Of a stretch of DNA of 36,614 nucleotides, positions 901-22,536 are shown piece after piece (position 1 is the stretch's first letter; each line of letters begins with the position of its first letter). A program made the translations under genes and the position numbers. This DNA is from a virus. The stretch lies in the IMG/VR virus record IMGVR_UViG_3300018026_000029. One strand, 5' to 3'. Below the pieces are notes generated by a model. It saw nothing but the letters and a program-made list of their open reading frames with translations. It was not told the DNA's origin and did not search any database.

Positions 901-946
901 GGAGCAACCCTCCGTCAGGCAGTAACATCCACTAGGAAGGTGCAGG

Positions 947-1237
947 ATGGGCGGCAAGCCTAAGGGGGTAACCATAAGGGGGGTAAGGTTCCGCCCAGGG
1001 GAGGTGGACTGGGAGGATGCCCATGGCGTCTCCAGGGACGCCCTTCCCGACTTCGATGCCATCCGCAACGGCGCTACCGGCTTCGTAGGGGCCAAGATAA
1101 CCTCCGCAGGCCTGATAGGCAAGGTAGGCAACTACCTTATAGTCATCACGGAGTATGACGCCGGTGACCTGGAGTCCACGGAGTTCGACTACACCCTCAT
1201 CCCGCTCCGCCCCAAGACCGCAGTCCGCTACCACTAG
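947..1237 (+). CDS. Hypothetical 96-aa protein.
   Basis: ORF with an ATG preceded by GGAAGG. It is co-directional in the operon and has normal amino-acid composition. Confidence 0.45.
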   Translation: MGGKPKGVTIRGVRFRPGEVDWEDAHGVSRDALPDFDAIRNGATGFVGAKITSAGLIGKVGNYLIVITEYDAGDLESTEFDYTLIPLRPKTAVRYH

Positions 1238-1309
1238 GCATCTCCTAGACTTTCCATTTCTTAACCAGGGGGCACCCTGGCCGCAAGGAGGCACCCCCAT
1301 ACCTTTGGC

Positions 1310-3253
1310 GTGCAAGGGCAACGGATGTCCCCGAACCTTAACCCGCTCCTGATACCCAGAAGAAGGGCAGCCCCGCCGCCCGCTGGCCCGCTGCCGGGGT
1401 TCGTGCCCCTGGGCTATGACTCCAAGACAGCATGGGAGGAAGTCTCCCTCTCGGAGCCTGCATACCACCTGCTCGGCGGCATCCTGGAGAGCGATAAGGA
1501 CATAGCGTCCTGGCTGTCCAACGAGCAGGCGGAGGACGCCCCTGCCATCATGGGCCTCCTTTCCGGCAAGAGGATAGCCGTCATAGACATGGTCCGTGTG
1601 GCCTATGACAGGAGGGGGGAGGGGCTCGGGGCCAAGGCATTCAACCGCCTCCTGTGGAGGGCCAGGCGGGCCAAGTGCGATGCCATACTCCTGCTGTCCG
1701 GCGTCTATGAGAAGCAGCGTAGGGGCTTTAACATAACCAAGTTCTGGGAGGCAAGGGGGTTCGAGAGGATAGGGCAGACAGTCGGGGCAGTGGACAAGGG
1801 CGAGAAGCCCCGTAAGCTGCCCCTTATGGTACGCTGGCTCAAGCCTCTTCCCAAGACCGCCAAGCTGATAGAGTACGGCCAGCTCAAGAACATCCTCAGC
1901 GAGCTGATGGCGGACGTGGAGGGTAACCTCCCCACGCCTGACCTCAGGATTGTAAGCCATACCCGCCCTACCTGGGGGGGAAGGTGCCTGTGGACGCTCG
2001 GCAACCCCAACACTGTAATAGAGATACAGAAGTCCGTCACCGCCGACGAGAGGAGCTTCCGGCGCATCCTGGCCCACGAGCTTTGCCACCACGAGCAGTA
2101 CCTCGTCTACTGGTCCGTGTACACCCCCCGGAACTTCAAGTTCATGACCAGACTGGAGGGGGGGCACGGCAGGGTTTTCCGCAAGATAATGGACAGGTGG
2201 AACGCCAGGCACGGCAAGGGCTTCGTCACCGTCACCTCGGACAAGGACATCCTGTACGAGTTCGAGAGCAAGCCCTTCTTCGTCTTCGTCCAGCGCTTCC
2301 TCGGCGGCCGCCCCATATGGCAGGCCTCCATCCGCCTGACCGACAGGCAGCTCAGGTTCATGTCCGGCAAGAGGCAGGGGGACTACAAGCTGGTCCAGAC
2401 CGACGACCGCAGGTTCATAAACGCCCCGGTGATAGGCTCCGGCAAGGGATGGCAGTACATCCCCGTGGAGGAGCACGAGTGGGAGGAGGCCGCCATCAGG
2501 CTATGGGAGCAGCCCGACCTGCGCATGCGGTGGGACGCCAAGCCCCCCGCCACCAAGGAGGAGGAGCAGGCGCTCCAGAGGCAGAGGGACGAGGAGGAGA
2601 GGGAGGCCCGCAGGAGGCGCTACGAGGAGCTGGCCGCCAGCATAGGGAGGCACGGTATGCCCCCCACCACGGCAGCCAGCAGGGACACCGCCCCTACCCC
2701 CGAGGTCCTGGAGGAGGCGAGGCAGATAAGGGCGGAGGAGAGGGAGGGGGACAGCAGCAGCGCCCAGCTCATGGCGGGCAACTGCGGCAATACCGCCACG
2801 GCCGCCGCCGACAGGTTCGGCTGGGACATAGAGTCGGGCATCTACATCCACGAGGGCAGGGGGCAGGACCATACCTGGAACATCCTGGCGGACGGGACGG
2901 TAGTGGACATATCCCATGACCGGTTCGGGGAGCCGGACATCGCCGTCGCCAGGCCGGGCACCACGGAGCACGCCCGCTACCACCCGTACTGCTGGGCCTA
3001 CAAGCCCCAGGAGGAGGCGGACGCCTGCCCGGTGTGCAACCCGCCTGGCGCGATGGCCAAGGATATGGCCAAGGCAGGGGACTCCCACAAGCAGACCCCG
3101 CACAGGGAGAACGAGTTCCCCGACCTGGACGAGGGCGAGGCCGTCGGGGGGTACGGTACCCAGCCCGAGTGTGTCGAGGGCAACAGGACGGGTCTGGGCA
3201 TCGAGGAGCTGGCGAGGCAGGTGGAGATGACGGAGGTGCTGGATGGGACATAG
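1310..3253 (+). CDS. Three-enzyme fusion protein: N-terminal GNAT-type acetyltransferase, SprT/WLM-like zinc metalloprotease, and C-terminal transglutaminase-like Cys-His-Asp protease core followed by a zinc ribbon.
   Basis: GNAT motif A: 'VRVAYDRRGEGLGAKAFNRLL'. SprT-like HExxH: 'RRILAHELCHHEQY'. A charged linker 'EEEQALQRQRDEEEREARRRRYEE' separates the domains. TGase-like core: 'GNCGNTATAAA' (GxCxxxA), then 'HTWNILADGTVVDISHD' (His, Asp). Zinc ribbon: 'CPVCNPPG'. Confidence 0.7.
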   Translation: MQGQRMSPNLNPLLIPRRRAAPPPAGPLPGFVPLGYDSKTAWEEVSLSEPAYHLLGGILESDKDIASWLSNEQAEDAPAIMGLLSGKRIAVIDMVRVAYDRRGEGLGAKAFNRLLWRARRAKCDAILLLSGVYEKQRRGFNITKFWEARGFERIGQTVGAVDKGEKPRKLPLMVRWLKPLPKTAKLIEYGQLKNILSELMADVEGNLPTPDLRIVSHTRPTWGGRCLWTLGNPNTVIEIQKSVTADERSFRRILAHELCHHEQYLVYWSVYTPRNFKFMTRLEGGHGRVFRKIMDRWNARHGKGFVTVTSDKDILYEFESKPFFVFVQRFLGGRPIWQASIRLTDRQLRFMSGKRQGDYKLVQTDDRRFINAPVIGSGKGWQYIPVEEHEWEEAAIRLWEQPDLRMRWDAKPPATKEEEQALQRQRDEEEREARRRRYEELAASIGRHGMPPTTAASRDTAPTPEVLEEARQIRAEEREGDSSSAQLMAGNCGNTATAAADRFGWDIESGIYIHEGRGQDHTWNILADGTVVDISHDRFGEPDIAVARPGTTEHARYHPYCWAYKPQEEADACPVCNPPGAMAKDMAKAGDSHKQTPHRENEFPDLDEGEAVGGYGTQPECVEGNRTGLGIEELARQVEMTEVLDGT

Positions 3254-5906
3254 CCCTGTTCCCGTTCCCAAGGAGGCGGTGGTGGGGCAGGTCTACCTCC
3301 TGCACTTCCTGGGGGAGGGCCTTGCCCACGGGGCGCAGGCCCGCACCCGGCACTACCTGGGGTGGTCCGAGGACGCGGAGTCCCACATAGCCCAGCACAT
3401 GCGCGGCACCTCCGGTGCCAGGCTGATGGAGGTAGTGAAGGAGCGCGGCATAACCTTCACCGTGGCAAGGGTCTGGGACAACGTCACGAGGGAGTGGGAG
3501 AGGAAGCTGAAGAACGCGGGCGGCCTGAGCCGCTGGTGCCCCGTCTGCAAGGCAGAGGGCACCATCCCGAAGTCGCGCCAGAGGACGAGGGCCGAGGTGC
3601 CTGCACCGCCCCCTGCACCGCCTACAGGCCCGGACTACGCGGGGCCCGAGGAGAGGGCGGGGGAGGACTTCGGCAAGGCCTCCGCATCTCACAGGCTCCC
3701 CAAGGGCGTGCGGGTCACCGTCAAGAGGGAGCGTCTGTCCGGCGGGAGCGACTGGTACATAGGGCACATCTGGAAGGACTACCAGTACGCGGGCCACTGC
3801 CCCGTCTATTCCGAGCTGCCGTCCAAGGCCCGGGAGGCGGCCATCGACTGGGCATGGCAGATGTTCCCGGAGGAGCACCCTGGCGGGGAAAAGGTAGCCT
3901 ATGACTACAAGCAGATGTTCCGTACCATCCTTTCCGAGCTGGGGGCCCTGGACAGGCTGGCGGCCCGCAAGGCCGACGTGGAGATAAGCGCCTGGGTAAA
4001 CTGGGCGAAGCGCGTCCTCCAGAAGCGCGACAGGATAACCTGGTTCCTCCGCCTCGGGCAGCTCAAGTGGGCGGACTACCTCGCCGATGCCTACCAGTGG
4101 TACAAGAGCCCTGGCTCCAGGGCGGAGGAGGCCAGGAAGTGGAAGGAGTGGATAAAGGCCAAGGCACAGCAGGAGGAGCCCCCTGCTACCCCGGAGGGGG
4201 CAGTCTCGACCCACATGGGGGCTGTCATGGCAAGGCTGGAGCACTACCTCAGCCTCCCCATCCCCGAGATACAGGGCACCGTCTTCCTGCGCCAGCAGCC
4301 AGGGGAGATACTGGACAGGTTCCATAGGCTGGAGAAGGACTGGAGGGACAGGCAGTCCCACCTCCTGAGGCCGCACCCGAGGGACGAGGGCAACGAGGCG
4401 GACGAGGGGGACGAGATAGTCCTGGAGTTCCCTGACGGCTGGGCATGGTGGAGGCTAGGCAGGTCTTACTGCCCCGAGGAGGCCCGTGCCATGGGCCACT
4501 GCGGGAACGAGGCCGCCGGGCCCGACAGGCCGGACGACCGTATCCTGAGCCTGAGGCATAAGGTAATCGTGAACAGGGAGACCTTCTGGGAGCCCCACCT
4601 CACGTTCATCTGGGACGATGACGGGCTGCTCGGCGAGATGAAGGGCAGGGGGAACGAGAAGCCTGCGCCGAGGTACCACCCCTATATCGTTGCCCTGCTC
4701 GAACGCAAGGACCTTGTCTTCGGGATAAAGGGCGGGGGCTACCTGCCGGGGAACAACTTCTCCCTGGAGGACCTGCCCCCGGAGCAGCAGGAGAGGGTGA
4801 AGAAGGCCAACCGCAGCCTGGTCAGCGCCTCGGAGATGTACAGCGAGTCCCGTGGCAGCATGACCGACGAGCTTCTCCAGAGGATTGCGGACAGGACCGT
4901 GCTCAGGAAGGACCAGTGGAGGCCGGAGGAGGAGGCCTTCGTGGTGGATAAGTACGCCAACCCGGAGTGGTTCATATCCACGGAGGGCAGCCCGTGGCTG
5001 GAGGCCCAGATGATGCTGGCCCGTGGGGGGTTCGGCAAGCACCCCAACCACCAGGTCGTGGAGGAGGGGATAAGGGACCTGCTCTCCGTCCTGGACGACA
5101 GGGAGAGGAGGGCGGTGCTGGAGAGGATGCCCCCGATTCCCGGGCCGCCCCTCCTCTCCCGTGCCCCCAGCCCCGATGCCCCCTGGCGCAGCGAGGACCT
5201 GCCCTCCCTGTTCATGGAGGAGAGGAACGACCATGCCCTGTGGTCGTACCTCAGGGGGGCGACACGGATACTCAGCGCCCCCGAGCAGCAGGGGGAGTAC
5301 GAGAAGCTCTGGGGGATACTGGCCGCCGCCTGGGAGGCAGGCATCACCAGGGAGATGCGCCAGGCGGCCCTGGACAGGGTAAGGGGCTTCCTGGGCAACA
5401 ACAGGCGGAACAATGTGCGCACCAACGATGCCTCCAGGGTAGCCTTCCCGGAGGCCAGCGACCCGGACTTCTGGAGCAAGCCCGTCCTGGTGGAGGTAAG
5501 TATCCAGGACGCCGTGCATCTTGCCTCCCCCTTCTCCCATGAGGAGTCAGGGTACTCCGGGGGCGAGGACACGGCCATCTACATCGACGACTACTGGGAG
5601 ACCAGCCACGGGGCCGTCCTGTACGATGCCAGCGCACCCTACAAGAAGCTCACCCTCCCCTCCGACCAGAAGAGGGACCTCGACCTCAAGATGGACAGGG
5701 AGTCCGAGGGCAGGGAGGGCAGGTCGGTCAGGCAATGGCACGAGGACTTCCTCAGGGGCCGCCCCTACGAGTACCTGCGCTGGCTGCGGGAGGAGGTACC
5801 GGCCATCTTCGAGCAGGAGATGACGCCGGAGGCATGGGACGAGGGGAAGGCCAGGGAGGCCCTGATGGTGATGCTCCCCAGCCTCCGCTCCCAGGGGAAG
5901 GGCTAG
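3243..5906 (+). CDS. 887-aa multidomain protein: N-terminal GIY-YIG-like nuclease domain, CxxC ribbon and Pro-rich linker, then copy 1 of the novel WAWW/MGHCGN module, then a ~350-aa tail of unknown function.
   Basis: GIY-YIG-like region: 'QVYLLHF...RHYLGWSED...HIAQH...REWERKLKN'. Zinc ribbon: 'CPVCK'. Linker: 'PAPPPAPPTGP'. Module hallmarks: 'YDYKQMFRT', 'DGWAWWRLGRSYCPEEARAMGHCGN', 'RILSLR', 'EPHLTFIWDDDG', 'LGEMKGRGNEKPAPRYHPYI', 'GGGYLPGNNFSLEDLP'. The ATG overlaps the previous stop by 11 nt. Confidence 0.7.
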   Translation: MGHSPVPVPKEAVVGQVYLLHFLGEGLAHGAQARTRHYLGWSEDAESHIAQHMRGTSGARLMEVVKERGITFTVARVWDNVTREWERKLKNAGGLSRWCPVCKAEGTIPKSRQRTRAEVPAPPPAPPTGPDYAGPEERAGEDFGKASASHRLPKGVRVTVKRERLSGGSDWYIGHIWKDYQYAGHCPVYSELPSKAREAAIDWAWQMFPEEHPGGEKVAYDYKQMFRTILSELGALDRLAARKADVEISAWVNWAKRVLQKRDRITWFLRLGQLKWADYLADAYQWYKSPGSRAEEARKWKEWIKAKAQQEEPPATPEGAVSTHMGAVMARLEHYLSLPIPEIQGTVFLRQQPGEILDRFHRLEKDWRDRQSHLLRPHPRDEGNEADEGDEIVLEFPDGWAWWRLGRSYCPEEARAMGHCGNEAAGPDRPDDRILSLRHKVIVNRETFWEPHLTFIWDDDGLLGEMKGRGNEKPAPRYHPYIVALLERKDLVFGIKGGGYLPGNNFSLEDLPPEQQERVKKANRSLVSASEMYSESRGSMTDELLQRIADRTVLRKDQWRPEEEAFVVDKYANPEWFISTEGSPWLEAQMMLARGGFGKHPNHQVVEEGIRDLLSVLDDRERRAVLERMPPIPGPPLLSRAPSPDAPWRSEDLPSLFMEERNDHALWSYLRGATRILSAPEQQGEYEKLWGILAAAWEAGITREMRQAALDRVRGFLGNNRRNNVRTNDASRVAFPEASDPDFWSKPVLVEVSIQDAVHLASPFSHEESGYSGGEDTAIYIDDYWETSHGAVLYDASAPYKKLTLPSDQKRDLDLKMDRESEGREGRSVRQWHEDFLRGRPYEYLRWLREEVPAIFEQEMTPEAWDEGKAREALMVMLPSLRSQGKG
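3898..4790 (+). repeat. Protein-level tandem module, copy 1 of 4 (YDYMEMF / WAWW / MGHCGN / EPHLTFI family).
   Basis: Shares an ordered set of conserved blocks with copies 2–4. It also shares short conserved DNA words with them, for example 'gactacaagcagatgttc', 'tgggcatggtgg' and 'gccatgggccactgcgggaac'. Confidence 0.6.
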
Positions 5907-8900
5907 ATGGAGAAGCTCTCCTACGACTACATGGAGATGTTCAGGGGCATACTCTCCGACTTCCCCGGCCAGCTAGAGCACCTGAGGAGGGAGGTCAAGT
6001 GGGCCAAGACCCTCCGCAAGCAGGACCGCATCACCTGGTTCCTGCGCTGGCTCAGGATAGCGGTATACGACGGCATAGCCCTTACCCTGCACGGGGACAG
6101 CGACCCGGCCAGGAGGGAGCTGTCCAGCAAGTACGCCCGCCTTATGGCCGCCGAGATGCAGCGGATAGGCTGGTCCGACAGGGACATGCTCTACATCAGC
6201 CTGCACAGCGCAAAGGACAGCATCGTACACTTCCTGGGCATCCCCTCCCCTGCCATCCAGAACCTTGTCTGGGGGAGGCAGACCCCCGCACAGCTACTAG
6301 GCAGCTTCGAGGAGGCGGAGAACGACTGGAAGGGGGCGGACAGCGACAGGGCGCTCGCCCCGCACGAGGACGACCAGGTAGCCCTGAGGTTCCCCAACGG
6401 CTGGGCGTGGTGGCTGCTGGGGAGGGGCTACTGCCCCGAGGAAGCCAAGGCGATGGGGCACTGCGGGAACGTGGCAGGGAGGGACCTGCCGGGGCAGCGC
6501 ATCCTGAGCCTCAGGCGTCCCGTCAAGGGCCCGGGCGGCCGGGAGGCCTGGGAGCCCCACCTTACCTTCATCCTGCATATTGCCCACAAGGCGCTGGGCG
6601 AGATGAAGGGGCGCGGCAACGAGAAGCCTGCCGCCAGGTACCATCCCTACATCGCTGCCCTCCTGGAGAGCCCCGTGGTGGAGGAGATATGGGGCGGGGG
6701 GTACCTGCCCGAGAACAACTTCAGCATGGCGGACCTGCCCAGGGACGTGCAGGAGGGCCTTGTCCAGAAGAAGCCCGCCCTGATGACCTTCAGGATGAGG
6801 CTGGCGAAGGAGGGTGCCCAGGGGCCGAGCGAGGAGCTGGTCAGGGACATCACCTGGAAGCTGAGCATGGGGGCTGACGACTGGTCGCCCAGGCTGCGGG
6901 CGTTCAGGATAGGCACCTGGAAGAGCGCCATAGACTTCGCGGGGCAGTTCGGCACGGAGGAGACAAGGCAGGTAATCCAGCTTGCGCTGGACGGGGAGGG
7001 CATACCGACCTCCTCCGATATGGGGGAGGACGAGTATGTCCTGGAGGCCCTGAGGGCCCTCTCCCCCGACAACCTGAAGAGGGTAGTAGACTACACCCGC
7101 TGGACGGACCCCAAGGCGCTGGAGTGGTGGGCCAAGAACCGGGGCAACCCGGATACCCCCGAGGGCATCGCCCAGATGATAGGGAGGATGGACCTTCCCA
7201 ATATCAGGACGAACCTCTATAGCTGCTGGTACAGGGGGATGAAGAACGGCACCGTCTTCCAGCTCCTCCATGCCTGCTGCAACGAGATAGAGAAGCTAAA
7301 CCCCGTCACCCCGGCAAGCACGGAGCTGGCATGGGGAGACCCGTCCCCCAGGGCCGTCCAGACATATACCCGCAGCCCGGACAGGCTCCTCCTGGCAACG
7401 CCCCTCTGGGAGACCGTGCCCCTGGAGTTCGCCGCAGCCGTGGCCGACGACGAGGAGAAGGACCCCAGGGAGATGCCCTACAGGTACGAGGAATGGTCGG
7501 GGCTAGAGCTGAAGGCTCCCCCGGACGGCTGGGGGGACTTCAGCAAGAGGACGGTGAACGAGGAGGCCAGGTTCTTCTTCCATACCGGGGACGGTATACC
7601 GGAGCAGCTTGCCAGCCTGGATATCGCCAAGGTAGCCTATGACTACATGGAGATGTTCCGTGGCTTCCTGGCAGACTTCCCGAGGTTCCAGCCCACGGTG
7701 ACCAACACCATAAGCTGGTGCAAGCGGGTCCTCAGGAAGCGCGACCGCATCACCTGGTGGCTGAGGCAGATGCGCCTCTTCTGGTACAACCTGGTAGCCG
7801 ACAAGGCCTCGGCCTGGCGCTATGCCCCTGCGACAAACTGGCCCGCCACGGAGGTTCCGGCCGACAACACGGCCATGATAGCGCTGGCAGACAAGTACCA
7901 GGCGCTCTTCGACAGGGAGGTGCGCTCCCTGGGTCCCCTAGGGCTCGCTGACCGGTCGAACTACCTGGACCTGGGGATGTTCGCCAACTCCAACCAGAGC
8001 ACGATGGAGCACCTGCTCAGCCTGCCCGTCCCAGAGATACAGAACCTCGTGTGGGAGAGGCAGACCAAGCAGGAGCTTTTCAGGACCCTCCTTAACTACG
8101 AGACGAAGTGGAAGGAGGAGAGCAAGGGGGTCCTCCGCCCCCGCCCAGGGGACAGGCCTGTCATTACCTTCGGGGACGGATGGGCATGGTGGCTCCTCGA
8201 CCGTGGGTACTGCGAGGAGGAGGCCCGTGCCATGGGCCACTGCGGGAACGTCAACGGGCAGAACCGCCCCTACGAGCGCATCCTCAGCCTGCGGAAGTCG
8301 GTGCGCAGGGGGGGCACGGAGTATTACGAGCCGCACCTGACGTTCATCCTCGACACCCGCGACAGCTCCCTGGGGGAGATGAAGGGCAAGGGTAACAACA
8401 AGCCCGCCCCCCAGTACCACCCCTATATCCTCAGGCTCCTGGAGAGCGACATAGTGAGCAAGGTGAAGGGCGGGGGCTACCTGCCGGAGCATAACTTCAG
8501 GCTGGGGGACCTCAGCGAGGAGCAGCGGGAGGAGCTTGCCCAGAGGAAGCCCTCCATGGCCGCCTTCTATATCCGCCTCAAGAGGGAGGGCCCCAGCCCG
8601 GCCCTGATAGCCGACATCGGCAGCGCCTTGCAGGTAGGGGGCTGGGACCCCGACCTCCAGGGGTACGTCATCAGGCAGTGGGAGAACATGTCCTCCCTGG
8701 CCGAGGACATAGGGAACGACACGGCGAAGTGGATAGCCAAGGTGGTGGGGGGCGGGGAGTTCAACCGACATGATAGCCCAGACTTCGAGTACGGCGACCG
8801 CTCGGAGGCCATGAAGATGGCACTGGGTGCCTGCTCCGACAAGACCCTTGACCTTGTGGTCAGGTGCCTTGCCTACAAGTACCCCACCAACCTGGTGGAG

Positions 8901-11375
8901 TGGCTGGAGCACAACAACACCGACTACAGCGGGCAGGCCACCGGGTTTATGGAGAGGGGGTTCGGCGACTCCCAGGCCCGCAAGTGGCTCTCCAAGCTCA
9001 ACCTGAAGATAGACGGGGTCCTGGGCGATGACGATGACATCATAGACTTTATCGAGTTCGCAAGCCTGGACGACGAGGAGAGCACCCTCCTTAACGCCTG
9101 GACAGACGCCACGCAGTCCGGGACCGAGATAGACATGAATAGGGACTTCGAGCACGCTGCCAACGACCTCCTGGGCACGGAGTTCCCCTGGGGTACCATG
9201 CTGAGGAGGAAGGGAAAGTACTTCTGGGACGACCCCATCTATGAGTTCATGCCCCTGGCCAAGGCTATCGAGGTAGCAGACAGCGGCGAGGACAGCGCCA
9301 GCAGCTACATGGAGGCCAACGGCAGGGACGACAGCGAGGAGTTCAGGCTGAAGGTTGACGAGCCCTACTACGGATACAACGGCTGGGACGAGTCTGCCGC
9401 CGACGAGCGGATAAGCGAGGGGTTCAGCTTCAAGGAGGAGCCCGAGCCCGAGCCTCCCAAGAAGGCCAGGAGGCCCAGGAAGCCCAGGGCCCCCAAGCCA
9501 AAGAAAGTGATGTCGGCGCTCGGCGACATCGCAGGGAAGTCGGCGCTCGGCGGCATGAAGCTGGCCTACGACTACATGGAGATGTTCCGTGGGCTGCTCC
9601 AGGACTTCCCGGGCCGCAAGGAGACGATAGACGGGGAGATAGCCTGGTGCAAGCGGGTCCTCAAGAAGAGGGACCGCATCACCTGGTGGCTGAGATGGTT
9701 CAGGCTCTTCGAGTACCATGGCATACGCCACAACCCCATGTACTACTGGAGCAAGTACTCCACCACCGAGGTAGAGGAGCAGCTCCCGCAGAACATCACC
9801 CCCGCTATCCGAGAGAGGCTGGCCGCCCTTTCCAGGAAGTACGACAAGGCCTACACGGACGAGATGCACAGGCTGGGCTGGACCGACTTCCGGGGGGGGC
9901 ACTACCCCGACTCCACCAGGCATACGGTAGAGCACTACCTGTCCCTGCCCGTCCCGGAGATACAGGGCCTCGTCTGGGAGAGGCAGCAGCCCTACGAGCT
10001 GTTCATGCTCCTGATGGGCCTGGAGGAGAAGTGGAAGGAGAGGACCAAGGGGGTGGTCGCCCCCCACGAGGGGGACAAGCCGGTCCTGACCTTCGGCGGC
10101 GGGTGGGCATGGTGGCTGCTGGACAGAGGATACTGCGAGGACGAGGCAAGGGCCATGGGGCACTGCGGCAATGTCGCCGGGCAGTACGATGACGACCAGC
10201 GCATCCTCAGCCTGCGCCAGTCGGTGAGGAGGGGCAGCGAGGAGTTCTACGAGCCGCACCTCACCTTCATCCTGCATACCGGGGACAACTCCCTGGGGGA
10301 GATGAAGGGGAAGGGCAATGCCAAGCCCACGGCAAGGTACCACCCCTACATCGTCAAGCTCCTGGAGAGCGGCCTTGTCGATAGGGTAAGGGGCGGAGGC
10401 TACCTTCCCGAGCACAACTTCAGCATGACGGACCTCCCGCAGGCGGAGCAGGACAGGCTGGTGGCCCTGAAGCCCTCCCTTATGTCCTTCGCCTACCGCC
10501 TGGGCAAGGAGGGGATTACCAAGGGGCTGCTCTCCGACCTGTCCAGGGTGCTGTCCCCGATGGAGGAGGGAAAGCCCTATCCCGTCAAGGACTGGTACAT
10601 GCCCAAGCGCCGTGGCTTTCTCATCAACTCCTACACGCTCAAGGAGTTCACAGAGGAGTTCGGGGACGAGGAAAGCCAGGATGCGGCCGATGTCCTGGAG
10701 GGCCGTACCGCGATATCCACCGGCATCGGGGGAGGGGAGGGGTACTGGGCGGGGTGGGGGGGCACAGGGGGAGTGGACCCCCTTGAGGACACCCTGTCGG
10801 CCATAGGCATGACGACCCTTATGATGGCGGAGAAGTACTACAGGGGGCTCTCCAAGGAGCTGCTGCCGGACACCCACCTTGTCTGCACCTATGACCAGGC
10901 CCGGCGCACGTCCACGGGGCCGGTGGCCGGAATCCTCAGCTTCATATCCCAGAACAGGCTCCTGGCGGAGTCCAACAGCATCACCGAGGCATGGAAGAGG
11001 GGCAGGAACGCCGGGATAAAGGCCAGCATGCTCAAGGAGCTTGACAGTGCCCTGGACTCCATCCTGGACCGCCGCCTGGAGGACGGCACCATCTTCTACC
11101 GCCTCGACCCCGCAAGGTGGAACTCCGACATCGAGCACATCCTGCCCCTGGAGGAGGCCGTGGCGATAGCCGACCAGGGGCAGACCTTCGAGGATTTCTT
11201 CGAGGGGTGGGACCAGAGCGTCTGGACCCCCGTCATAGAGTTCGAGGTCCCCCCGCAGGGGTGGCCGGGGTGGGACGCCCAGGCGGCAGAGCTTGCCCTG
11301 AGGGAGCATTACTCCTCCGGGCAGGAGGAAGAAGGCAAGAAGCCTAAGCCTAGGGGGAGGAGGAAGGCCAGGTAA
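5907..11375 (+). CDS. 1822-aa giant protein carrying copies 2, 3 and 4 of the WAWW/MGHCGN module. Each copy has a putative papain/transglutaminase-like Cys-His-Asp core. Linker regions of unknown function separate the copies.
   Basis: Three reiterations of the blocks 'YDYMEMFRG..DFPG', 'KRDRITWWLRW', 'GWAWWLL.RGYC.EEA.AMGHCGNV', 'RILSLR', 'EPHLTFIL', 'LGEMKGKGN.KP', 'YHPYI', 'GGGYLPE.NF'. The ATG follows the upstream TAG directly, with GGAAGGG 4 nt upstream. The TAA stop overlaps the next ATG (TAATG). Confidence 0.75.
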   Translation: MEKLSYDYMEMFRGILSDFPGQLEHLRREVKWAKTLRKQDRITWFLRWLRIAVYDGIALTLHGDSDPARRELSSKYARLMAAEMQRIGWSDRDMLYISLHSAKDSIVHFLGIPSPAIQNLVWGRQTPAQLLGSFEEAENDWKGADSDRALAPHEDDQVALRFPNGWAWWLLGRGYCPEEAKAMGHCGNVAGRDLPGQRILSLRRPVKGPGGREAWEPHLTFILHIAHKALGEMKGRGNEKPAARYHPYIAALLESPVVEEIWGGGYLPENNFSMADLPRDVQEGLVQKKPALMTFRMRLAKEGAQGPSEELVRDITWKLSMGADDWSPRLRAFRIGTWKSAIDFAGQFGTEETRQVIQLALDGEGIPTSSDMGEDEYVLEALRALSPDNLKRVVDYTRWTDPKALEWWAKNRGNPDTPEGIAQMIGRMDLPNIRTNLYSCWYRGMKNGTVFQLLHACCNEIEKLNPVTPASTELAWGDPSPRAVQTYTRSPDRLLLATPLWETVPLEFAAAVADDEEKDPREMPYRYEEWSGLELKAPPDGWGDFSKRTVNEEARFFFHTGDGIPEQLASLDIAKVAYDYMEMFRGFLADFPRFQPTVTNTISWCKRVLRKRDRITWWLRQMRLFWYNLVADKASAWRYAPATNWPATEVPADNTAMIALADKYQALFDREVRSLGPLGLADRSNYLDLGMFANSNQSTMEHLLSLPVPEIQNLVWERQTKQELFRTLLNYETKWKEESKGVLRPRPGDRPVITFGDGWAWWLLDRGYCEEEARAMGHCGNVNGQNRPYERILSLRKSVRRGGTEYYEPHLTFILDTRDSSLGEMKGKGNNKPAPQYHPYILRLLESDIVSKVKGGGYLPEHNFRLGDLSEEQREELAQRKPSMAAFYIRLKREGPSPALIADIGSALQVGGWDPDLQGYVIRQWENMSSLAEDIGNDTAKWIAKVVGGGEFNRHDSPDFEYGDRSEAMKMALGACSDKTLDLVVRCLAYKYPTNLVEWLEHNNTDYSGQATGFMERGFGDSQARKWLSKLNLKIDGVLGDDDDIIDFIEFASLDDEESTLLNAWTDATQSGTEIDMNRDFEHAANDLLGTEFPWGTMLRRKGKYFWDDPIYEFMPLAKAIEVADSGEDSASSYMEANGRDDSEEFRLKVDEPYYGYNGWDESAADERISEGFSFKEEPEPEPPKKARRPRKPRAPKPKKVMSALGDIAGKSALGGMKLAYDYMEMFRGLLQDFPGRKETIDGEIAWCKRVLKKRDRITWWLRWFRLFEYHGIRHNPMYYWSKYSTTEVEEQLPQNITPAIRERLAALSRKYDKAYTDEMHRLGWTDFRGGHYPDSTRHTVEHYLSLPVPEIQGLVWERQQPYELFMLLMGLEEKWKERTKGVVAPHEGDKPVLTFGGGWAWWLLDRGYCEDEARAMGHCGNVAGQYDDDQRILSLRQSVRRGSEEFYEPHLTFILHTGDNSLGEMKGKGNAKPTARYHPYIVKLLESGLVDRVRGGGYLPEHNFSMTDLPQAEQDRLVALKPSLMSFAYRLGKEGITKGLLSDLSRVLSPMEEGKPYPVKDWYMPKRRGFLINSYTLKEFTEEFGDEESQDAADVLEGRTAISTGIGGGEGYWAGWGGTGGVDPLEDTLSAIGMTTLMMAEKYYRGLSKELLPDTHLVCTYDQARRTSTGPVAGILSFISQNRLLAESNSITEAWKRGRNAGIKASMLKELDSALDSILDRRLEDGTIFYRLDPARWNSDIEHILPLEEAVAIADQGQTFEDFFEGWDQSVWTPVIEFEVPPQGWPGWDAQAAELALREHYSSGQEEEGKKPKPRGRRKAR
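5919..6740 (+). repeat. Protein-level tandem module, copy 2 of 4.
   Basis: 'LSYDYMEMFRGILSDFPG ... NGWAWWLLGRGYCPEEAKAMGHCGNVAGRD ... RILSLRRPV ... EPHLTFILHIAHKALGEMKGRGNEKPAARYHPYI ... GGGYLPENNFSMADLP'. Confidence 0.6.
7633..8520 (+). repeat. Protein-level tandem module, copy 3 of 4.
   Basis: 'VAYDYMEMFRGFLADFP ... DGWAWWLLDRGYCEEEARAMGHCGNVNGQ ... RILSLRKSV ... EPHLTFILDTRDSSLGEMKGKGNNKPAPQYHPYI ... GGGYLPEHNFRLGDLS'. Confidence 0.6.
9562..10450 (+). repeat. Protein-level tandem module, copy 4 of 4.
   Basis: 'LAYDYMEMFRGLLQDFPG ... GGWAWWLLDRGYCEDEARAMGHCGNVAGQY ... RILSLRQSV ... EPHLTFILHTGDNSLGEMKGKGNAKPTARYHPYI ... GGGYLPEHNFSMTDLP'. Confidence 0.6.
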
Positions 11376-14300
11376 TGGCACAGGACCTAACAGCCATCAG
11401 CACGCCCGGCACGACCACCCAGGGCCCCGCGTTCAAGGCATGGTTCCGGAACTCCGTGGTGAGGAACCCGGACGGCAGCCCGAGGCCTGTCTACCATGGA
11501 AGCACGCACAGCTTCGAGGCCTTCAGCCTGAAGCCCGGCAACCCCGAGAACTGGTACGGCAAGGCGCTCTACTTCACCGACAGCCCCGAGGACGTGGGGA
11601 GGAACTACGCCACCCCCGACTCGCCGGACCTCAGGGCCCGCATCGACAAGCGCACCGAGCAGCTCATGGACAGGCTGGTGGACGAGCTGGAGCAGGAGCT
11701 TGGCGAGGCGCTGAACTGGAACGACCCCCGCAAGGATAGGCTCTTCCAGGACGCCAAGTCCCAGGCCACCAAGGAGCTTATGGGCCCTGGTGCCATATCC
11801 TACAAGCTGTACCTGCGCATCGAGCGGCCGGTAGTTATCAGGCAGGGCGGCGGCACCTACTTCGAGATAGACTACAACGAGAGGACCGGGAGGGAGACCG
11901 GCTCGGGCATGCGCCTGTACAGGGCGGTGATGAAGGCGGCAGGGCAGCTCAACCTCCCGAACAGCGACGAGATATGGCGGCAGTCGGTATCGGCAGACGA
12001 GGGGATGACGGAGGGCTTTACCGCCCAGCAGTTCGACGAGAACCTCCGCCACTCCGATGCCATGATGGAGGCACGGGACTGGGACGCCACCAACGAGGGC
12101 GAGTTCCTCTCCCTTGTCTACCGCCTGGCCGGATACGACGGCATCATCATGGAGGACGCCGGGGCCACCTTCCACAACATGGGCATCCCCCCCGGCACCA
12201 GGCACTATATCATCTGGAACCCCCGCCAGGCCAAGTCCGCCATTGGCAACACGGGCACGTGGAGCACCCGCACCCCCAGGCTGACGGCAGGCTGGGAGGA
12301 GGACGAGGGGGACTACGGGGTAGAGGACTACCCCCAGTGCCTCGGGGACTACGAGTTCAGGACGACATGCGTGTCCGAGGGCACCGGGGAGCACATCCAG
12401 GAGATGCTGGACAATGCCAAGGACTGCGGCTACAGCGAGGTAAAGAGGCACTGCGAGGGGCTGAGGCCGTGGGAGAAGGAGAACGGCTACGCCCCGGACG
12501 GCAGCCGTAAGGGGCTTACCCTGCGGCACGACTGGGCCGTGAGGTACGGCAGGGGCACCTACAGGAGGATGCCCTGCTACTTTGTCGTGTGGAGCGGCAT
12601 CGAGCATGTCTGGACGAGGAAGGGTGCCGGGGGGCAGGAAGGCTGGGAGGACTGGGCAGGGCGGACGTCAAGCAAGGGTGCTGGGAAGTCTGCCGGGAAG
12701 CCAGGCAAGGCAGGCCTCCTGTACCACGGCACCACGAAGGCCAACCTCCCGTCCATCATGTCCGAGGGTCTCAAGCCCACGGTGGGGTGCTATGCCGAGC
12801 TATGGCATGGCAGGGACCATAACGACACGAGCAAGTCCAACAACCTGGCCCCCGTGGTGTTTGCCGCCCCCAGGGAGCACCTCGACGACTGCCTGCTGGC
12901 CATCTTCGCTGCCCTCAGCAAGGACTTCCCCAGGACCTCCACGGAGCAGTTCTTCGACAATGCCGTCCTCCTGGAGCTTCCCGCCGACCAGTTCACAAGG
13001 AACAGGTGGAAGCGCCCGCCGAGAAATATGAAGCATGTGGAGTCGAGGGACTACTACAGCACCAGCCCTGTCAGGCCTATCCGGGCGATAACAGGGGAGG
13101 AGCTGCGGGGGTTCGCAGGGTATGCCTACCAGAGCGCCCGCCAGGAGTGGTTCGGGGCATACGACCCGGAGAGCCCTGGGCGCAGGCTCGCGGCGGGGAA
13201 GGAATGGCCCCCCTGGATTGGGGTGGACCTGGACGGCACGCTCGCCGAGGAGCAGAGCCCGTTCGACCCGCTGACCATCGGCAGGCCAGTCCCGGAGATG
13301 GTGAGGAAGGTCAGGCAGGCATTGGAGGACGGCGTGGAGGTACGGGTCTTCACCGCCCGGCTTGCAGACAAGGGGCTCAGGGACAGGATTAAGCAGGCCA
13401 TCAGGGACTATACCAGGGAGCACGTCGGCAGGGAGCTGGACAGCACCAACGAGAAGGACCCTGGCCTCAGGGAGATATGGGACGACAAGGCCAGGAGGGT
13501 GAGGAAGGACGAGGGCACCTTCGCCCTGCGGGGCACCGAGCGCCAGCCCTCCCGGGCCGACAGGTACCTGCGCGAGATGTGGAGCCCCGGCGACGGCGCT
13601 TGGTTCGAGTACCACTGCTGGGAAGACCCCAAGTCCTGCGATGCCAACCTGTGGTACCATTCGCACCAGAGGGTCACCGTGCTCGGCAAGGCGGACGCGG
13701 ACGGCTGGCACAAGGGCTGGGATGGCAGCATGATGAAGGACCGTGCGGAGGCGGGTGCCCCGAGGGCGTATACGGTGAGATTCCAGGACGGGTACGAACG
13801 CACCGCCGGGGAAGACGAGCTGATGACCAGCCGGAGGGGATTCTACCGCCCCGACCCGCCAAGGCCGCCCAAGGCGTTCGCCCTGCGGGGGAGCATTATC
13901 GTCGAGGAGCCCCTCTACCACGTCACCTTCAGGAAGAACCTGAGGAGAATCCTCAGGGAGGGGCTCCGTGGCGACCAGGAGCCTAACTGGCCCTTCGACT
14001 CGTCCCCCGGCAACGTGTACCTGATGACCAGGGACGGGCTGGACTTCTGGATGGACAGGTACGAGGACCTGCTCCGCGAGATGGGGAGCAGGTCAAAGCT
14101 GGTGGTTCTGGAGGTATCCCCCAAGGGGCTTATGTTCCAGGAGGATATACAGGGCACCGAGGACTCGGGGACAGAGGCATACCGTACCGGCTTCGTCCCT
14201 CCGGGGAACATACATGCCAACTGGCGGAGGACTGCCTCGCTTGGCAAGGCGGCCTTCAGGAGGCGTGCCCCCCTCTACCATGTGACCTTCTCGAAGAGCG

Positions 14301-14596
14301 TCCCGGCCATCCTGCGGGATGGCCTGGTGCCGAAGACATACCCCAAGCTCCCCCCCAGCCAGTGGGAGAAAGGGGTATACCTTACCAGCAAGGAGGGCAT
14401 ACCGTTCTGGGAGAACATCCTGCGGGATGACATGAAGTGGGGGGGGTTCCACGACCAGCTCTCCGTCCTGGAGGTCTCGCCTGAGGGGCTGGAGCTGGAG
14501 TACGACCGGCAGGGGACAGGGGACTCTGGCGCGAAGGCGTACATTACCCCAAGGGTCCCGCCAGAGAATATCTCCGTCCTGCGGGGGCCTGTCTAG
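11375..14596 (+). CDS. 1073-aa protein: N-terminal H-Y-E-class (PARP/diphtheria-toxin-like) ADP-ribosyltransferase domain, one HGT-type Tpt1/KptA-like domain, a HAD-superfamily phosphatase domain, and two tandem HVT-type Tpt1/KptA C-lobe-like domains.
   Basis: ART domain: 'VYHGSTHSFEAF' (H41), 'WYGKALYFTDS' (Y61/Y66), 'TYFEIDYNE' (E164). The H–Y–E spacing matches PARP and DT catalytic cores. Tpt1-like blocks 'LLYHGTTKANLPSIMSEGLKP...VVF..VLLELP', 'LYHVTFRKNLRRILREGL...NVYLMT...KLVVLEVSPKGL...VPPGNI' and 'LYHVTFSKSVPAILRDGL...GVYLTS...LSVLEVSPEGL...VPPENI' align to KptA 'LYHGT...GL...HYVHLS...PVILTVKA...VWLT'. HAD motif I: 'WIGVDLDGTLAEE'. HAD motif II: 'VRVFTAR'. Confidence 0.75.
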   Translation: MAQDLTAISTPGTTTQGPAFKAWFRNSVVRNPDGSPRPVYHGSTHSFEAFSLKPGNPENWYGKALYFTDSPEDVGRNYATPDSPDLRARIDKRTEQLMDRLVDELEQELGEALNWNDPRKDRLFQDAKSQATKELMGPGAISYKLYLRIERPVVIRQGGGTYFEIDYNERTGRETGSGMRLYRAVMKAAGQLNLPNSDEIWRQSVSADEGMTEGFTAQQFDENLRHSDAMMEARDWDATNEGEFLSLVYRLAGYDGIIMEDAGATFHNMGIPPGTRHYIIWNPRQAKSAIGNTGTWSTRTPRLTAGWEEDEGDYGVEDYPQCLGDYEFRTTCVSEGTGEHIQEMLDNAKDCGYSEVKRHCEGLRPWEKENGYAPDGSRKGLTLRHDWAVRYGRGTYRRMPCYFVVWSGIEHVWTRKGAGGQEGWEDWAGRTSSKGAGKSAGKPGKAGLLYHGTTKANLPSIMSEGLKPTVGCYAELWHGRDHNDTSKSNNLAPVVFAAPREHLDDCLLAIFAALSKDFPRTSTEQFFDNAVLLELPADQFTRNRWKRPPRNMKHVESRDYYSTSPVRPIRAITGEELRGFAGYAYQSARQEWFGAYDPESPGRRLAAGKEWPPWIGVDLDGTLAEEQSPFDPLTIGRPVPEMVRKVRQALEDGVEVRVFTARLADKGLRDRIKQAIRDYTREHVGRELDSTNEKDPGLREIWDDKARRVRKDEGTFALRGTERQPSRADRYLREMWSPGDGAWFEYHCWEDPKSCDANLWYHSHQRVTVLGKADADGWHKGWDGSMMKDRAEAGAPRAYTVRFQDGYERTAGEDELMTSRRGFYRPDPPRPPKAFALRGSIIVEEPLYHVTFRKNLRRILREGLRGDQEPNWPFDSSPGNVYLMTRDGLDFWMDRYEDLLREMGSRSKLVVLEVSPKGLMFQEDIQGTEDSGTEAYRTGFVPPGNIHANWRRTASLGKAAFRRRAPLYHVTFSKSVPAILRDGLVPKTYPKLPPSQWEKGVYLTSKEGIPFWENILRDDMKWGGFHDQLSVLEVSPEGLELEYDRQGTGDSGAKAYITPRVPPENISVLRGPV

Positions 14597-14618
14597 CCGT
14601 TCCCTCTAATAGAGACAC

Positions 14619-17600
14619 ATGGCGATAGCGGACAAGTTCGACCTGGGCTTCGTGGGGAGGCTGATGCGCTCCCGCAACGGCACCGTTGTCGGCACGCTCG
14701 GCGACCTGCTGAAGAGCCCCAGGGCGAGGGACCTCTACAAGGAGGCCCTGGGCGTGCCCGTCATGGTCCTGGACAGGCCCGTGCAGGGGGGCAAGTTCGT
14801 GGACAGCCCCGACCCCAACCTCAGGTTCTTCGGGGCCTGCGGCTCCCTCCGTGGCAAGGCATGCATATTCGTCAACCCCCGCTGGGGGGAGGAGGAGACC
14901 ATAAGGACCCTCCTGGAGGAGGGGGCGCACGCCCTGCGCAAGCTGAAGGGCAGGCCAGCGACGAAGCAGGACATCACGGCCCTTACCTCGGAGAACATCG
15001 GGGAGATGCACGACAGCCTGCCGGAGGAGGTGTCCGCCAAGCAGATGGCGGAGTATGTCCTGAAGACAGCCGCCCAGCTTCCCTCCGTGGCCTTCCGCCA
15101 GGTGTGGCATATCGGCAGCATGGACCCCGAGGACAAGGGGAAGGATAGCCTGGAGGGGGCGGGGCTCAGCATATCCACCCACCCCGAGGAATGGCAGCAG
15201 ATAGCCGAGCTGGGCGAGGGCCCGGTCTGGGAGCTTACGAGGAAGGGCAACAGGTTCCTTGACTTCCACCGCCTCACCAAGGCGCAGCTCGGTGCCATGG
15301 CCGACTGGGGGGCGCAGCAGGGCCTCATAGAGAGGCGGCCCGCCTGGCAGGTCAGGTGGTGGGACAGCGAGGACAACGGGTTCAGGTACGCGGAGACCGA
15401 GACCGAGGAGGAGGCGAAGGAGGAGGCCGGGGCGGTCGGGGGCAAGGTAAGGGCGCTCAGCAGCATAGCCTACCCGACTGACAGGCTGAGGAAGGCCACC
15501 AGGAACCCCCGTGCCAACTCCGTGGTGGCCATGGACCTGCTGGCGACGGTCTATGCCGACAAGGCCCTGGGCTGGGACGGCGTATGGTGGCAGGATACCC
15601 TGGACGTGCCTGGCCTCAGCGCCCCGAGGGGCGTTATCCTCCCCTCCAGGCTGGCAGGGTGGCAGAGGCGGCAGGTAGGCATGGAGGGGATAGAGGACTA
15701 CGGTGCCCCCGGCAGGAGGGTATCCTCGGACAGGAGGTTCATCTGGCAGGGCAGGCATGGCAAGGCCCCGCAGCCCGGCGTCCCCTATTACCATGTCGCC
15801 CCGGCCAGCTACCAGGAGGGCCAGGATATCTACTCCTACGATGCCTACCAGGACGAGTTCGGCGAGGAGCCCGAGTGGAAGTGGGAGGAGGGCCAGATTG
15901 GGGATACCGACAAGGTCTCCCTGCATGACAGCCTGGAGGAGGCAGAGGGCTTCCGGGAGGAGTGGGTCCCCGGTGGCAGGGTCATAGAGGTCGTGTTCCC
16001 CTCCCCGCTGGGGCAGCTAGGCCTGTCCGGAGGGGTGAACGGCGAGGGGTACCCGTTCGTCCGCCATCGTATACCAGGGGGGTTCGTCAGGAAGGTCAGC
16101 AGTGGCCGGAAAACACTGGAGGAGCTTGCCCTGGAGTTCCGTGAGAGGCAGGAGGACTGGTTCGAGTGGCAGGATGACAAGGCGTGCTTCCGGGAACAGT
16201 GCCTTGGCATAGCCAGGGGCCTGGCCAAGTTCCTGACGGAGAACGGCATCCCTGCCGAGCCTTGGCACAGTTACTATTATGACGATGACGGGAAGCCCCA
16301 TAACCACTGGTGGGTCATAGCCGGGGGCAGGGTGGTGGATGTAACGGCCGACCAGTTCCATCCCGAGGACCCCGACAGCTACCGGGTGGTCATAACAAGC
16401 CTGGATGACCCTCACTACAGGCAGAGGAAGGCCAGGCAGGCCGGGACAGAGTCCTCCCCCCAGTCCGTTCCCGCCATGCAGGGGTGGGGCTATGACGAGC
16501 CGTTCCCTGACAGGCACTCGGACTTCTTCGAGCTGGTGGAGAACCCCCACACGGACAGGGGCAGGGAGACCAGGGTGCTGGAGACCGGGGCACCGCCGCC
16601 CGAGGGCGGCGAGGGCAAGCCTGCCAGGGGAGAGCCTGGCCAGGAGGGCACGCTGGTCAGGCCGATGGCGTCCTTCAGGAGCGCCCTCCTGCGCAAGAAG
16701 GCATACAGTATCCTGGCGGTGTTCTGGGTCAAGCTCCAGGGGCGCATCCTGCTGTTCCCCAACAGGTTCCTCAACCATGACCAGATTCTACAGGAGACAG
16801 GCATCCCTGCGGGCGGCCCGGAGTACGACAGGATGCTGCGGGGCAGGGTGTTCATAGACCGGGAGAGGCGGCGGGTGAGGTTCACCCGGCACGGTGGGGG
16901 CTATACCCCCAACGATGTGGTGGAGGAGATTGTCAGCCGCTACCACCTCCAGGACTGGGAGATGGAGGACGAGGGCGAGGCCATGGGCAGGTACGGCTCT
17001 GTCCAGGGCGGGCCCGTGGTCGAGAGGCTCGGCCGTGAGGACATCCCCGAGGCCCTGGAGGTCATCGCCCAGTGCTTCCCCCAGTACGCGGACATCGCCG
17101 ACGTGGTCTCCAGGGACGTCCGGGGGGACTTCAGCCTCTCCTATGGGATGAGGCTGGAGGGCAGGATTATAGGCTGCTACCTCCTGGGCCGCGTGCAGCT
17201 ACCCGAGGAGTACCCCGGCCGCCCCGAGGCACAGGCATACGCAGGTAAGAGGGGCGTGCGGGGGGTGTGCCTGTGCCTGCTGCCCCAGTACCGTGGCAAG
17301 GGGTGGGGGGCAAGGCTTCGGGCCGTCCCGCTCTCCCTGGGGGCGGACTATGTCTGGGGCGAGCATTACAGCAGCCTGGACAACCTCGGCAAGTGGACGA
17401 GCTTCGGACGCAGGCTGCTGTTCGACACGAAGGATGCCAAGGGGCAGCCCTACCATGTTACCGTCATGGACCTGAGGGGGGGGCCGCCGAAGGCCGCCTC
17501 CTCCAGGGACCCCTACCTCTACCATGTAGCGCAGCCGGGCACCCTCGGGAACATAGCGAGGGACGGGCTCCAGGGCGGCATACTGGGCCCGAAGGTGTTC

Positions 17601-21486: not shown

Positions 21487-22536
21487 CTATACCTTCCTCC
21501 GGTACCCCCCCATGCACACGAGCTGCACGGCGTCCGGGTTGACGGCGAAGCCAGCCTTCTCAGTGAGGGTAAAGCCCATATGGTCAGGAGGATAGTCGGC
21601 TGACAGCACGCTCATCCTCGCCTCGTCGGCCACGTACCCCGCGTGGACTGCATCGTCTACCCCGTCCACGGCCCTCGTGGCCCTGGTATGCCCGGTGACG
21701 TACATCCACCCCTGGGGCACAGACCGGCTCTGGTAGAACGCGGTACCGTCAATATACCCCAGCAGCCCCGTCTTGAGCGTTACCCTGTCGTGGTTGCGGT
21801 AGAGCCTGTCGTCCCTCAGCCCCAGCAGCTCCGTGGCATCGTGCGGGTGGGCGAAGATGTACTGGGCCTCCTTGACGCCCCGCCCCGAGAGCCTCTCCCT
21901 TGCCTCCTCCAGGAAGGAGGGGCTGAACGGGACGATGTCCCTGGCCACAGAGTCCATCAGGGAGAACATCCACATGTCCTCGGCATCGGTCACCTCCCCC
22001 TTTGCCAGGTTGAGGCAGCGTGCGACCAGGTCGAACCGGCGCTCTGTCACGTGCGAGGCGGGGAACCCGACCTCCGATGTAATCTCGAAGGCCGGGATGT
22101 CAGTGCCGTCCCCCGTGCTGCGGAGCTTGTCGTAATGCACGCCGTTATAGAGGGGCAGGACGCTGTGCAGGCCCAGGCGGCCAAGGCTGGAGACGTGGCT
22201 CCCGTCCACCACGCAGAAGGCCTTGCGGACCAGGCTCTTGTAGTCCCTGCGGCGTCTCAGGGACGGTCCCATGGCCTCCGCCAGCCTCCGGCGGCCATCG
22301 GCGTTCTTGAGGAAGCTGTAGATAAGGTCCTCCTGCTCGGGGGTCGTATGGGGGATGCCCCCAAGGTATACCTGCTCCCTGTCAAGCCAGAAGACGTCCC
22401 CCTGGGCAGTATCCCCCGTATCCTCCTGGGCAAGCGCCACGGCCAGGCTGCTGGCCCTAAGCTGCCGTGCCCCTAGCAGTGCTGCCGTCCCCCCCAGCAG
22501 CGACCGGAAGAACCCCCTGCGCACCATCGTCCCCAT
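21487..22536 (-). CDS. 349-aa protein with a twin-arginine (Tat)-type signal peptide. Function unknown.
   Basis: N-terminus 'MGTMVRRGFFRSLLGGTAALLGARQLRA' has an RR-x-FF motif, a hydrophobic h-region and an AxA-like site. The remainder has no motif I recognise. Confidence 0.5.
   Translation of the reverse strand: MGTMVRRGFFRSLLGGTAALLGARQLRASSLAVALAQEDTGDTAQGDVFWLDREQVYLGGIPHTTPEQEDLIYSFLKNADGRRRLAEAMGPSLRRRRDYKSLVRKAFCVVDGSHVSSLGRLGLHSVLPLYNGVHYDKLRSTGDGTDIPAFEITSEVGFPASHVTERRFDLVARCLNLAKGEVTDAEDMWMFSLMDSVARDIVPFSPSFLEEARERLSGRGVKEAQYIFAHPHDATELLGLRDDRLYRNHDRVTLKTGLLGYIDGTAFYQSRSVPQGWMYVTGHTRATRAVDGVDDAVHAGYVADEARMSVLSADYPPDHMGFTLTEKAGFAVNPDAVQLVCMGGYRRKV

Follow-up and report, generated by a model that had tools for sequence, protein, structure and literature searches.

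As one open reading frame (ORF) at positions 1310-3253 (+) of a 36,614-nucleotide (nt) viral DNA (IMG/VR record IMGVR_UViG_3300018026_000029; this whole stretch is called the window below) had been read from its letters as a fusion of a GNAT acetyltransferase, a SprT-like metalloprotease and a transglutaminase-like Cys protease, we were interested in which class of protein it encodes and what such a chain might do for the virus. Polyvalent proteins are considered the earliest phage proteins that a host encounters, entering with the DNA and disabling host defences. Their chains join 2-15 unrelated domains, their genes lie beside virion genes, and a zincin metallopeptidase is their commonest hub, with GNAT, ART, 2H and ParB domains as cargo; they have been proposed to be packaged and injected with the DNA, the peptidase cutting the chain into separate enzymes (Iyer et al., 2017; PMC5512222). 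SprT-like metallopeptidases have been noted in some jumbo phages (PMC7824862). As architecture, cargo and synteny of the gene match this class and its protease the SprT-like peptidases, we read it as the gene of a polyvalent protein from an uncultivated jumbo phage, with a Spartan/Wss1-type protease as hub, that would act as a virion-delivered, self-processing effector bundle, and give this reading a probability of about 60%. The chain carries two cargo enzymes, a GNAT-type and a YunG-type domain with a Cys/His cluster, on a scaffold of protease, accessory domain, linker and connector. Its parts are as follows, with amino acids (aa) numbered throughout in the 647-codon frame that begins at GTG 1310:

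1310..3253 (+), whole ORF, 647 codons, GTG at 1310, stop at 3251-3253
1325..1414 (+), conserved N-terminal peptide MSPNLNPLLIPRR... with the NPLL motif (alignment A1)
1415..1834 (+), probable GNAT-type acetyltransferase domain, aa ~36-175 (PHROG, PDB profile, Pfam under its cut-off)
1850..2215 (+), SprT-like (Spartan/Wss1-type) zinc metalloprotease domain, aa 181-302 (Pfam, model)
2216..2542 (+), accessory alpha/beta domain, aa ~303-411, ~110 aa (alignments A3 and A4, model)
2543..2755 (+), charged linker, partly Pro/Thr/Ala-rich, aa 412-482 (composition, alignment A1)
2756..2965 (+), YunG-family domain, aa 483-552 (Pfam, family conservation)
2969..3037 (+), Cys/His cluster H554-x3-H558-x2-C561 ... 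C573-x2-C576 (alignment)
3074..3250 (+), connector module, 59 aa, aa 589-647: GDSHKQTPHRENEFPDLDEGEAVGGYGTQPECVEGNRTGLGIEELARQVEMTEVLDGT (homologue alignments)

As the DNA has about 65% G+C, long spurious ORFs occur in every frame. A gene-call artefact, the ORF being just one of these, was rejected: an identical 642-aa protein (P0001) is present in a metagenome protein collection (JGI metagenome), and five more homologues at 56-85% identity, together with P0007 at 34%, conserve the protein along its length. Judged by this conservation, the ORF is a genuine gene. Its true start is probably ATG 1325, giving 642 aa, because P0001 and all close homologues begin with MSPNLNPLL or MSSNLNPLL.

The Pfam family SprT-like (PF10263) matched aa 198-301 with an E-value of 5.6e-6 and 26.6 bits (curated cut-off 25.6); it also matched P0005 and P0006 above the cut-off, and P0003 as well as gp321 of the jumbo phage Tunturi_5 (discussed below) just under it. 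HELCHH at nt 2075-2092 contributes H256, E257 and H260, and the third zinc ligand is probably H286 in an invariant GHG (nt 2165-2167), so that both the HExxH and the third His ligand of the zincin fold are found. All four residues are invariant family-wide, from which we predict an active protease. With 15 more relatives of the SprT region collected, aa 181-411 were modelled from an 18-sequence alignment, leading to a mean predicted local distance difference test (pLDDT) score of 88; the best structural match of the protease was the SprT domain of Spartan, followed by Wss1. Profile and structure thus agree with the SprT-like metalloprotease named in the sequence-only reading. To human Spartan (SPRTN) and yeast Wss1, however, sequence identity is just 15-17%, the biological setting is different, and the zinc-binding subdomain as well as the SHP, PIP and UBZ motifs of Spartan are missing from the phage protein.

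In this SprT clade the protease is always directly followed by the accessory domain, which the three-domain inventory had missed, as it had the ~60-aa connector. The accessory domain starts with an invariant F-V...S-D (alignments A3 and A4), was modelled at pLDDT 80-90, has no Cys/His zinc site and gave no sequence relative in a PDB profile search; it is doubled in Tunturi_5 gp321, P0008, P0025 and P0026. The subsequent linker, with 19 D/E and 16 K/R among 78 residues examined, is conserved across close homologues and shows low pLDDT at its modelled end. It had been described as separating all three catalytic regions; the charged segment exists, but it lies only between the SprT block and the YunG domain.

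The third domain falls into the Bacillus subtilis YunG family. Pfam YunG (PF24585, cut-off 27) matched aa 484-546 with 29.2 bits (E 1.2e-6) in the whole protein and with 32.1 bits (E 1.4e-7) when the isolated domain was searched. The predicted triad consists of C492 (nt 2783-2785), H521 (nt 2870-2872) and D533 (nt 2906-2908), and the motifs originally quoted are all in place: RRGEGLGAKAF at aa 100-110, HELCHH at aa 256-261, GNCGN (Cys492), DHTWNIL (His521) and VVDISHD (Asp533). When aa 478-647 were compared exhaustively with 1.84 billion representatives, 101 matches were obtained, about 55 of them small (<=330 aa) and mostly solo YunG-like proteins, many others being 1,500-2,400 aa long. Of 94 domain instances, 91 retain the Cys, and all 94 have the His, the Asp and a Trp. 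Among 44 small solo relatives, 30 exceeded the PF24585 cut-off and 37 were matched at E<=10; when the 44 YunG-like proteins were compared with Pfam (E<=10) and NCBIfam, only YunG and Phage_YunG-like (PF24591) were detected, and no Transglut_core or other thiol-peptidase Pfam match appeared in these family members even at E<=10. In the model, whose pLDDT is only 55-76 for this domain, the Cys sits at the N-terminal end of a helix, and successive strands bear the His and the Asp. PDB profile searches with a 4-sequence or a 44-sequence profile gave no sequence relative, fold searches with the domain nothing significant and a word-index search for homologues started from the YunG+Cys/His alignment no match, and hhalign of the family against a PNGase transglutaminase-like core aligned the DHxW motif alone. 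In the literature, no experimental function was found for the YunG family. From residue conservation and profile matches there is good evidence that this domain is a predicted Cys-His-Asp enzyme; of the proposed transglutaminase-like Cys protease the catalytic residues hold, but the transglutaminase assignment finds neither a Transglut_core match nor a PDB or fold relative. In P0022 (352 aa, on a 46.9-kb contig) the YunG Cys is replaced by Tyr (SYGS versus GNCGN), which probably reflects an inactivated copy.

The Cys/His cluster, including H558-x2-C561 and C573-x2-C576, is invariant in four close homologues and was modelled at a pLDDT of only ~55; similar C-terminal clusters are carried by many solo YunG-like proteins. 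It may be a zinc-ribbon-like extension of the YunG domain, which here, in contrast to the B. subtilis family, is part of a multi-domain phage protein. The idea of a zinc ribbon ending the protein was right in that a conserved cluster is present, but not as to its place, as the 59-aa connector still follows.

The N-terminal domain is probably a GNAT acetyltransferase. A PHROG acetyltransferase family matched aa 85-159 (E 1.4e-4), and of the 22 matches listed by a PDB profile search, 17 were acetyltransferases or GNAT-like (best E 7e-4), with the match centred on RGEGLG (aa 101-106), which corresponds to the acetyl-CoA motif A (R-x-x-G-x-G; Q/R-x-x-G-x-G/A). Pfam remained under its cut-off and NCBIfam matches lay far under theirs. 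Profile searches, suggested at the outset as a check, therefore place SprT-like and YunG, two of the three domains first named, above Pfam cut-offs and recover the GNAT by PHROG and PDB profile, a weaker but consistent result.

Comparison of the homologues (alignment A1) separates a constant scaffold, made of SprT, accessory domain, charged linker and connector, from variable cargo. The connector (~60 aa, ADSHKQTPHREN...GY..QPEC...), which follows the Cys/His cluster as the last part of the protein, has the consensus SHKxTPxRE[ND]...GY..QPEC..G with invariant Cys and His, is predicted to be disordered with a terminal helix, and is kept in every close homologue, whatever precedes it. Six homologues keep core and connector but differ in their other modules, with GNAT, a second GNAT, YunG, ParB-like or further ones gained or lost. 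P0002 is without GNAT, marking this domain as cargo, and still retains the N-terminal NPLL peptide; P0003-P0005 have a second GNAT and a ParB-like module before the connector, P0003 and P0004 also one additional module; in P0006 other sequence replaces YunG, and P0007 has a 2H phosphoesterase. An (A/G)DSH(K/R)Q motif recurs at the module borders, twice in P0004, and in P0022 a different domain, not the connector, comes after ADSHKQ, which is further evidence that the motif marks a module border. NPLL also stands immediately or shortly before the ADSHK of the connector in P0006, P0035 and P0047, e.g. NPLLADSHKYTP; from this placement, cargo may have been inserted into a single ancestral element whose two halves now form the N-terminal peptide (motif at window 1325-1351) and the connector. 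Two simpler roles for the connector were rejected. In many giant relatives it lies within the chain, C-terminal as it is here, and can thus not be a strictly C-terminal signal; nor is it a common C-terminal signal of the five large proteins encoded in tandem at this locus, since connector, ADSHK and NPLL motifs have no second occurrence in the proteins of the window.

The same core was found at 27 IMG/VR loci, on contigs of up to 375 kb and in ORFs of 257-3,883 aa. Among 16 distinct core ORFs from IMG/VR, GNAT was detected in 12, SprT-like in 11, ART-PolyVal in 10 and 2H phosphoesterase in six. The sole isolate with a relative is Tunturi_5, a 309-kb jumbo myovirus with 43 tRNAs (PMC11924767). 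Its gp321 (XOB77764.1) shares the SprT+accessory core (34% identity, aa 195-381, E 9e-24), is likewise multi-enzyme, with 2H, three ART-PolyVal stretches and GNAT, and is encoded between head-tail connector and tail genes; it differs by its length of 1,362 aa, other cargo and domain order, the doubled accessory domain and the absence of both YunG domain and ADSHK connector. The public label of gp321 (L001, PP885688.1, 261501-265589) is "MutT/NUDIX hydrolase". As Pfam detected SprT-like, 2H phosphoesterase, three ART-PolyVal, GNAT and DUF3990, with NUDIX not among the matches listed, this annotation looks wrong.

The position of the gene also links it to virion genes:

3243..21053 (+), four more large ORFs in close succession (887, 1822, 1073 and 2144 aa), which make up one array together with the 1310-3253 gene
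21487..22536 (-), major head (capsid) protein gene (tblastn; phrog_2522, 3e-5)
30731-31954 (-), collagen-repeat tail-fibre protein, beyond the major head gene

The 1310-3253 gene is the first of five co-directional large ORFs (647, 887, 1,822, 1,073 and 2,144 aa) in a 20-kb run, joined by start/stop overlaps or gaps of <=22 nt. The fourth contains ART-PolyVal (1.1e-13). The fifth (14619-21053 +) contains a second YunG-like domain (aa 497-654) with Cys, His, Trp and Asp intact, and its C-terminus (aa 1944-2118) is formed by GP88 (1.3e-29), a domain matching the Tunturi_5 "minor head protein" and proteins of several 300-385-kb phages. The major head gene lies convergent to the array, 430 nt from its end, and tblastn related it to the major head proteins of Tunturi_5 (2e-28) and Bacillus phage G (3e-12). 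The contig of P0005 shows the same order, with the homologue of the 1310-3253 gene, a 318-aa gene and then ART-PolyVal giants.

With several unrelated enzyme domains on one polypeptide, a zincin-type hub and GNAT cargo, the protein resembles the polyvalent proteins of Iyer et al. (2017), as it does in the ART-PolyVal, 2H and ParB-like domains of neighbours and relatives, the adjacent virion genes and the shuffling of modules among orthologues. In 642 aa it combines GNAT, SprT-like and YunG domains with two uncharacterised modules; the phage gene is near a head gene, a tail-fibre gene and an ORF with a minor-head domain; its domains come from a shared network and its cargo is swapped among orthologues. 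The architecture, first called unusual, is so only outside this class, of which multi-enzyme fusion is a defining trait (PMC5512222). An accessory domain belonging to the protease, a connector downstream of the core and the lack of a MuF, portal or ArdC-N fusion are differences. By analogy with the class, the protein would be made late, packaged alongside the other array proteins and brought into the host together with the DNA; the SprT-like protease might then cut the chain, and perhaps its neighbours too, at inter-domain segments, and the freed enzymes would modify host or defence proteins. The two roles initially suggested, a processing factor for the downstream giant proteins or an effector modifying host proteins, would not be alternatives, since PMC5512222 proposes both, for protease and effector domains respectively; both would fit the polyvalent model, and it is the separate maturation factor that fits less well. 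As relatives fuse the same modules in cis into giants, the most fitting view is that the gene forms part of the array of giant proteins.

Several points weigh against a packaged and self-processing protein. The protease matches SprT-like and not Pfam MPTase-PolyVal, and a Cys-His-Asp enzyme such as YunG does not belong to any of the four peptidase superfamilies given for polyvalent proteins (zincin, assemblin-like, DD and LonC), among which there is no thiol peptidase (PMC5512222). For the GNAT, Pfam Acetyltransf_1 reached 16 bits (E 0.015) against a curated cut-off of 20.7. The 1310-3253 protein has no MuF or portal fusion, and no virion proteomics is reported for Tunturi_5 (PMC11924767). Finally, solo SprT+accessory proteins of ~257 aa occur without obvious giant neighbours, and the protease therefore need not act on polyproteins.

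These solo proteins, some on jumbo-phage contigs, would suit a dedicated maturation factor, whose protease (SprT-like and/or YunG) would process the downstream giants or head proteins in trans, in the infected cell or prohead, without being injected. So would the position of the gene as first of the array and its translational coupling to the giants, and PMC5512222 cites P1 DdrB, which is processed prior to packaging, as a precedent. We nevertheless regard such a factor as unlikely: many relatives fuse the core inside giants beside ART-PolyVal, GNAT and 2H, which argues for action in cis, a GNAT cargo has no obvious maturation role, and the solo cores are not consistently found beside giant ORFs. 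Improbable to a similar degree is a non-packaged enzyme of host takeover or anti-defence, acetylating and cleaving host proteins in the cytoplasm after infection, for which the nearby structural genes would be incidental. Phage GNATs and SprT-like peptidases have indeed been proposed to target host proteins (PMC7824862), and the 1310-3253 protein has no virion-anchoring domain; but the gene is co-directional and tightly packed with the minor-head-domain ORF, with the capsid gene adjacent, and the Tunturi_5 relative lies within a head-tail gene block. A Spartan-like protease clearing crosslinked proteins off the phage DNA, with the other domains as accessories, is very improbable despite the best structural match to the Spartan SprT domain, then Wss1, and despite an extra domain after the protease that may parallel the DNA-binding zinc-binding domain of Spartan, as this domain has neither a Cys/His zinc site nor a detectable relative and the partners in the family are of effector type (ART, GNAT, 2H), not repair proteins.

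Within the polyvalent reading, a more specific and rather doubtful idea is that protease+accessory domain and connector constitute a two-part self-processing cassette that brackets swappable cargo. In a local survey with hidden Markov models, the SprT core preceded the connector in almost every protein with both elements (sole exception L014), and 10 of 15 connector-bearing proteins retrieved independently of the core contain it. The data behind the idea are limited to this co-occurrence, the fixed order of core and connector and the border motif ADSH(K/R)Q. The connector may dock in the protease cleft as a latency element, comparable to a cysteine switch or the C-terminal tails of minigluzincin zymogens, or may alternatively be the cleavage site; in both cases the capsid would contain an inactive bundle, from which cleavage would free the active enzymes only once ejection has taken place, possibly when DNA is encountered. 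If so, the cassette would represent a polyprotein strategy in a double-stranded DNA phage.

As the polyvalent class has already been described, the 1310-3253 protein adds to a known class; its logic and the occurrence of SprT-like peptidases in jumbo phages are likewise published, and current ideas are not overturned. What our reading would place in the polyvalent class of soil jumbo phages is a protease of Spartan type that has an accessory domain of its own, a family of predicted Cys-His-Asp enzymes (YunG) that is widespread and uncharacterised, and a recurring connector module. The private accessory domain, YunG-type domains in polyvalent proteins and a cargo-bracketing connector are absent from PMC5512222 and PMC7824862, and may have been described elsewhere. 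The assignment also gives a usable annotation to a protein family that now has none, apart from the hydrolase label of the one cultivated relative.

Further genes of the window are:

154-900 (+), Pol-beta-type nucleotidyltransferase, 248 aa (PF01909, 2.2e-8)
947-1237 (+), 96-aa ORF, just upstream of the 1310-3253 gene
24446-25894 (-), CCA-adding tRNA nucleotidyltransferase (PF01743, 3.1e-32)

No tRNA genes were found in the window. At the equivalent upstream place, the contig of P0005 carries InPase, GIY-YIG and a 90-aa gene. PADLOC (E<=0.01) gave no match for the 1310-3253 protein, the 96-aa upstream ORF and the two downstream ORFs tested, and only weak PDC-S09 matches for the 248-aa nucleotidyltransferase ORF (E 0.0012 and 0.0045). 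Among 50,697 phage records, neither tblastn with the YunG domain and the connector nor megablast of window positions 1-12000 detected a match or a resembling genome, respectively.

In the 887-aa ORF (3243-5906 +), a GIY-YIG-like module (VYLLHF..HYLGWS..HIAQH..) was recognised by eye at nt ~3282-3560, with no Pfam match. A near-identical module forms the C-terminus (aa ~1905-2000) of a homologous 2,048-aa ORF in L005; as it starts the next ORF here and ends the homologous ORF there, modules thus move between neighbouring genes. A second module is repeated at nt ~4370-4820, 6330-6780, 8110-8560 and 10030-10480, one copy being in the 887-aa and three in the 1,822-aa ORF. It has the motifs GWAWW.L.R.YC.EEA.AMGHCGN ... 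EPHLTFI ... GEMKG.GN.KP..YHPYI ... GGGYLP..NF, with MGHCGN at 4491, 6453, 8232 and 10155; no Pfam, NCBIfam or PHROG family matched it, and its one tblastn match was in Salicola phage SCTP-2 (440 kb). At the far end of the window, a 590-aa ORF (34769-36541, -) matched the Major Vault Protein shoulder (PF11978, 5.6e-23) and the vault repeat (PF17795, 1.5e-9), and is thus a vault-protein-like gene within a phage genome.

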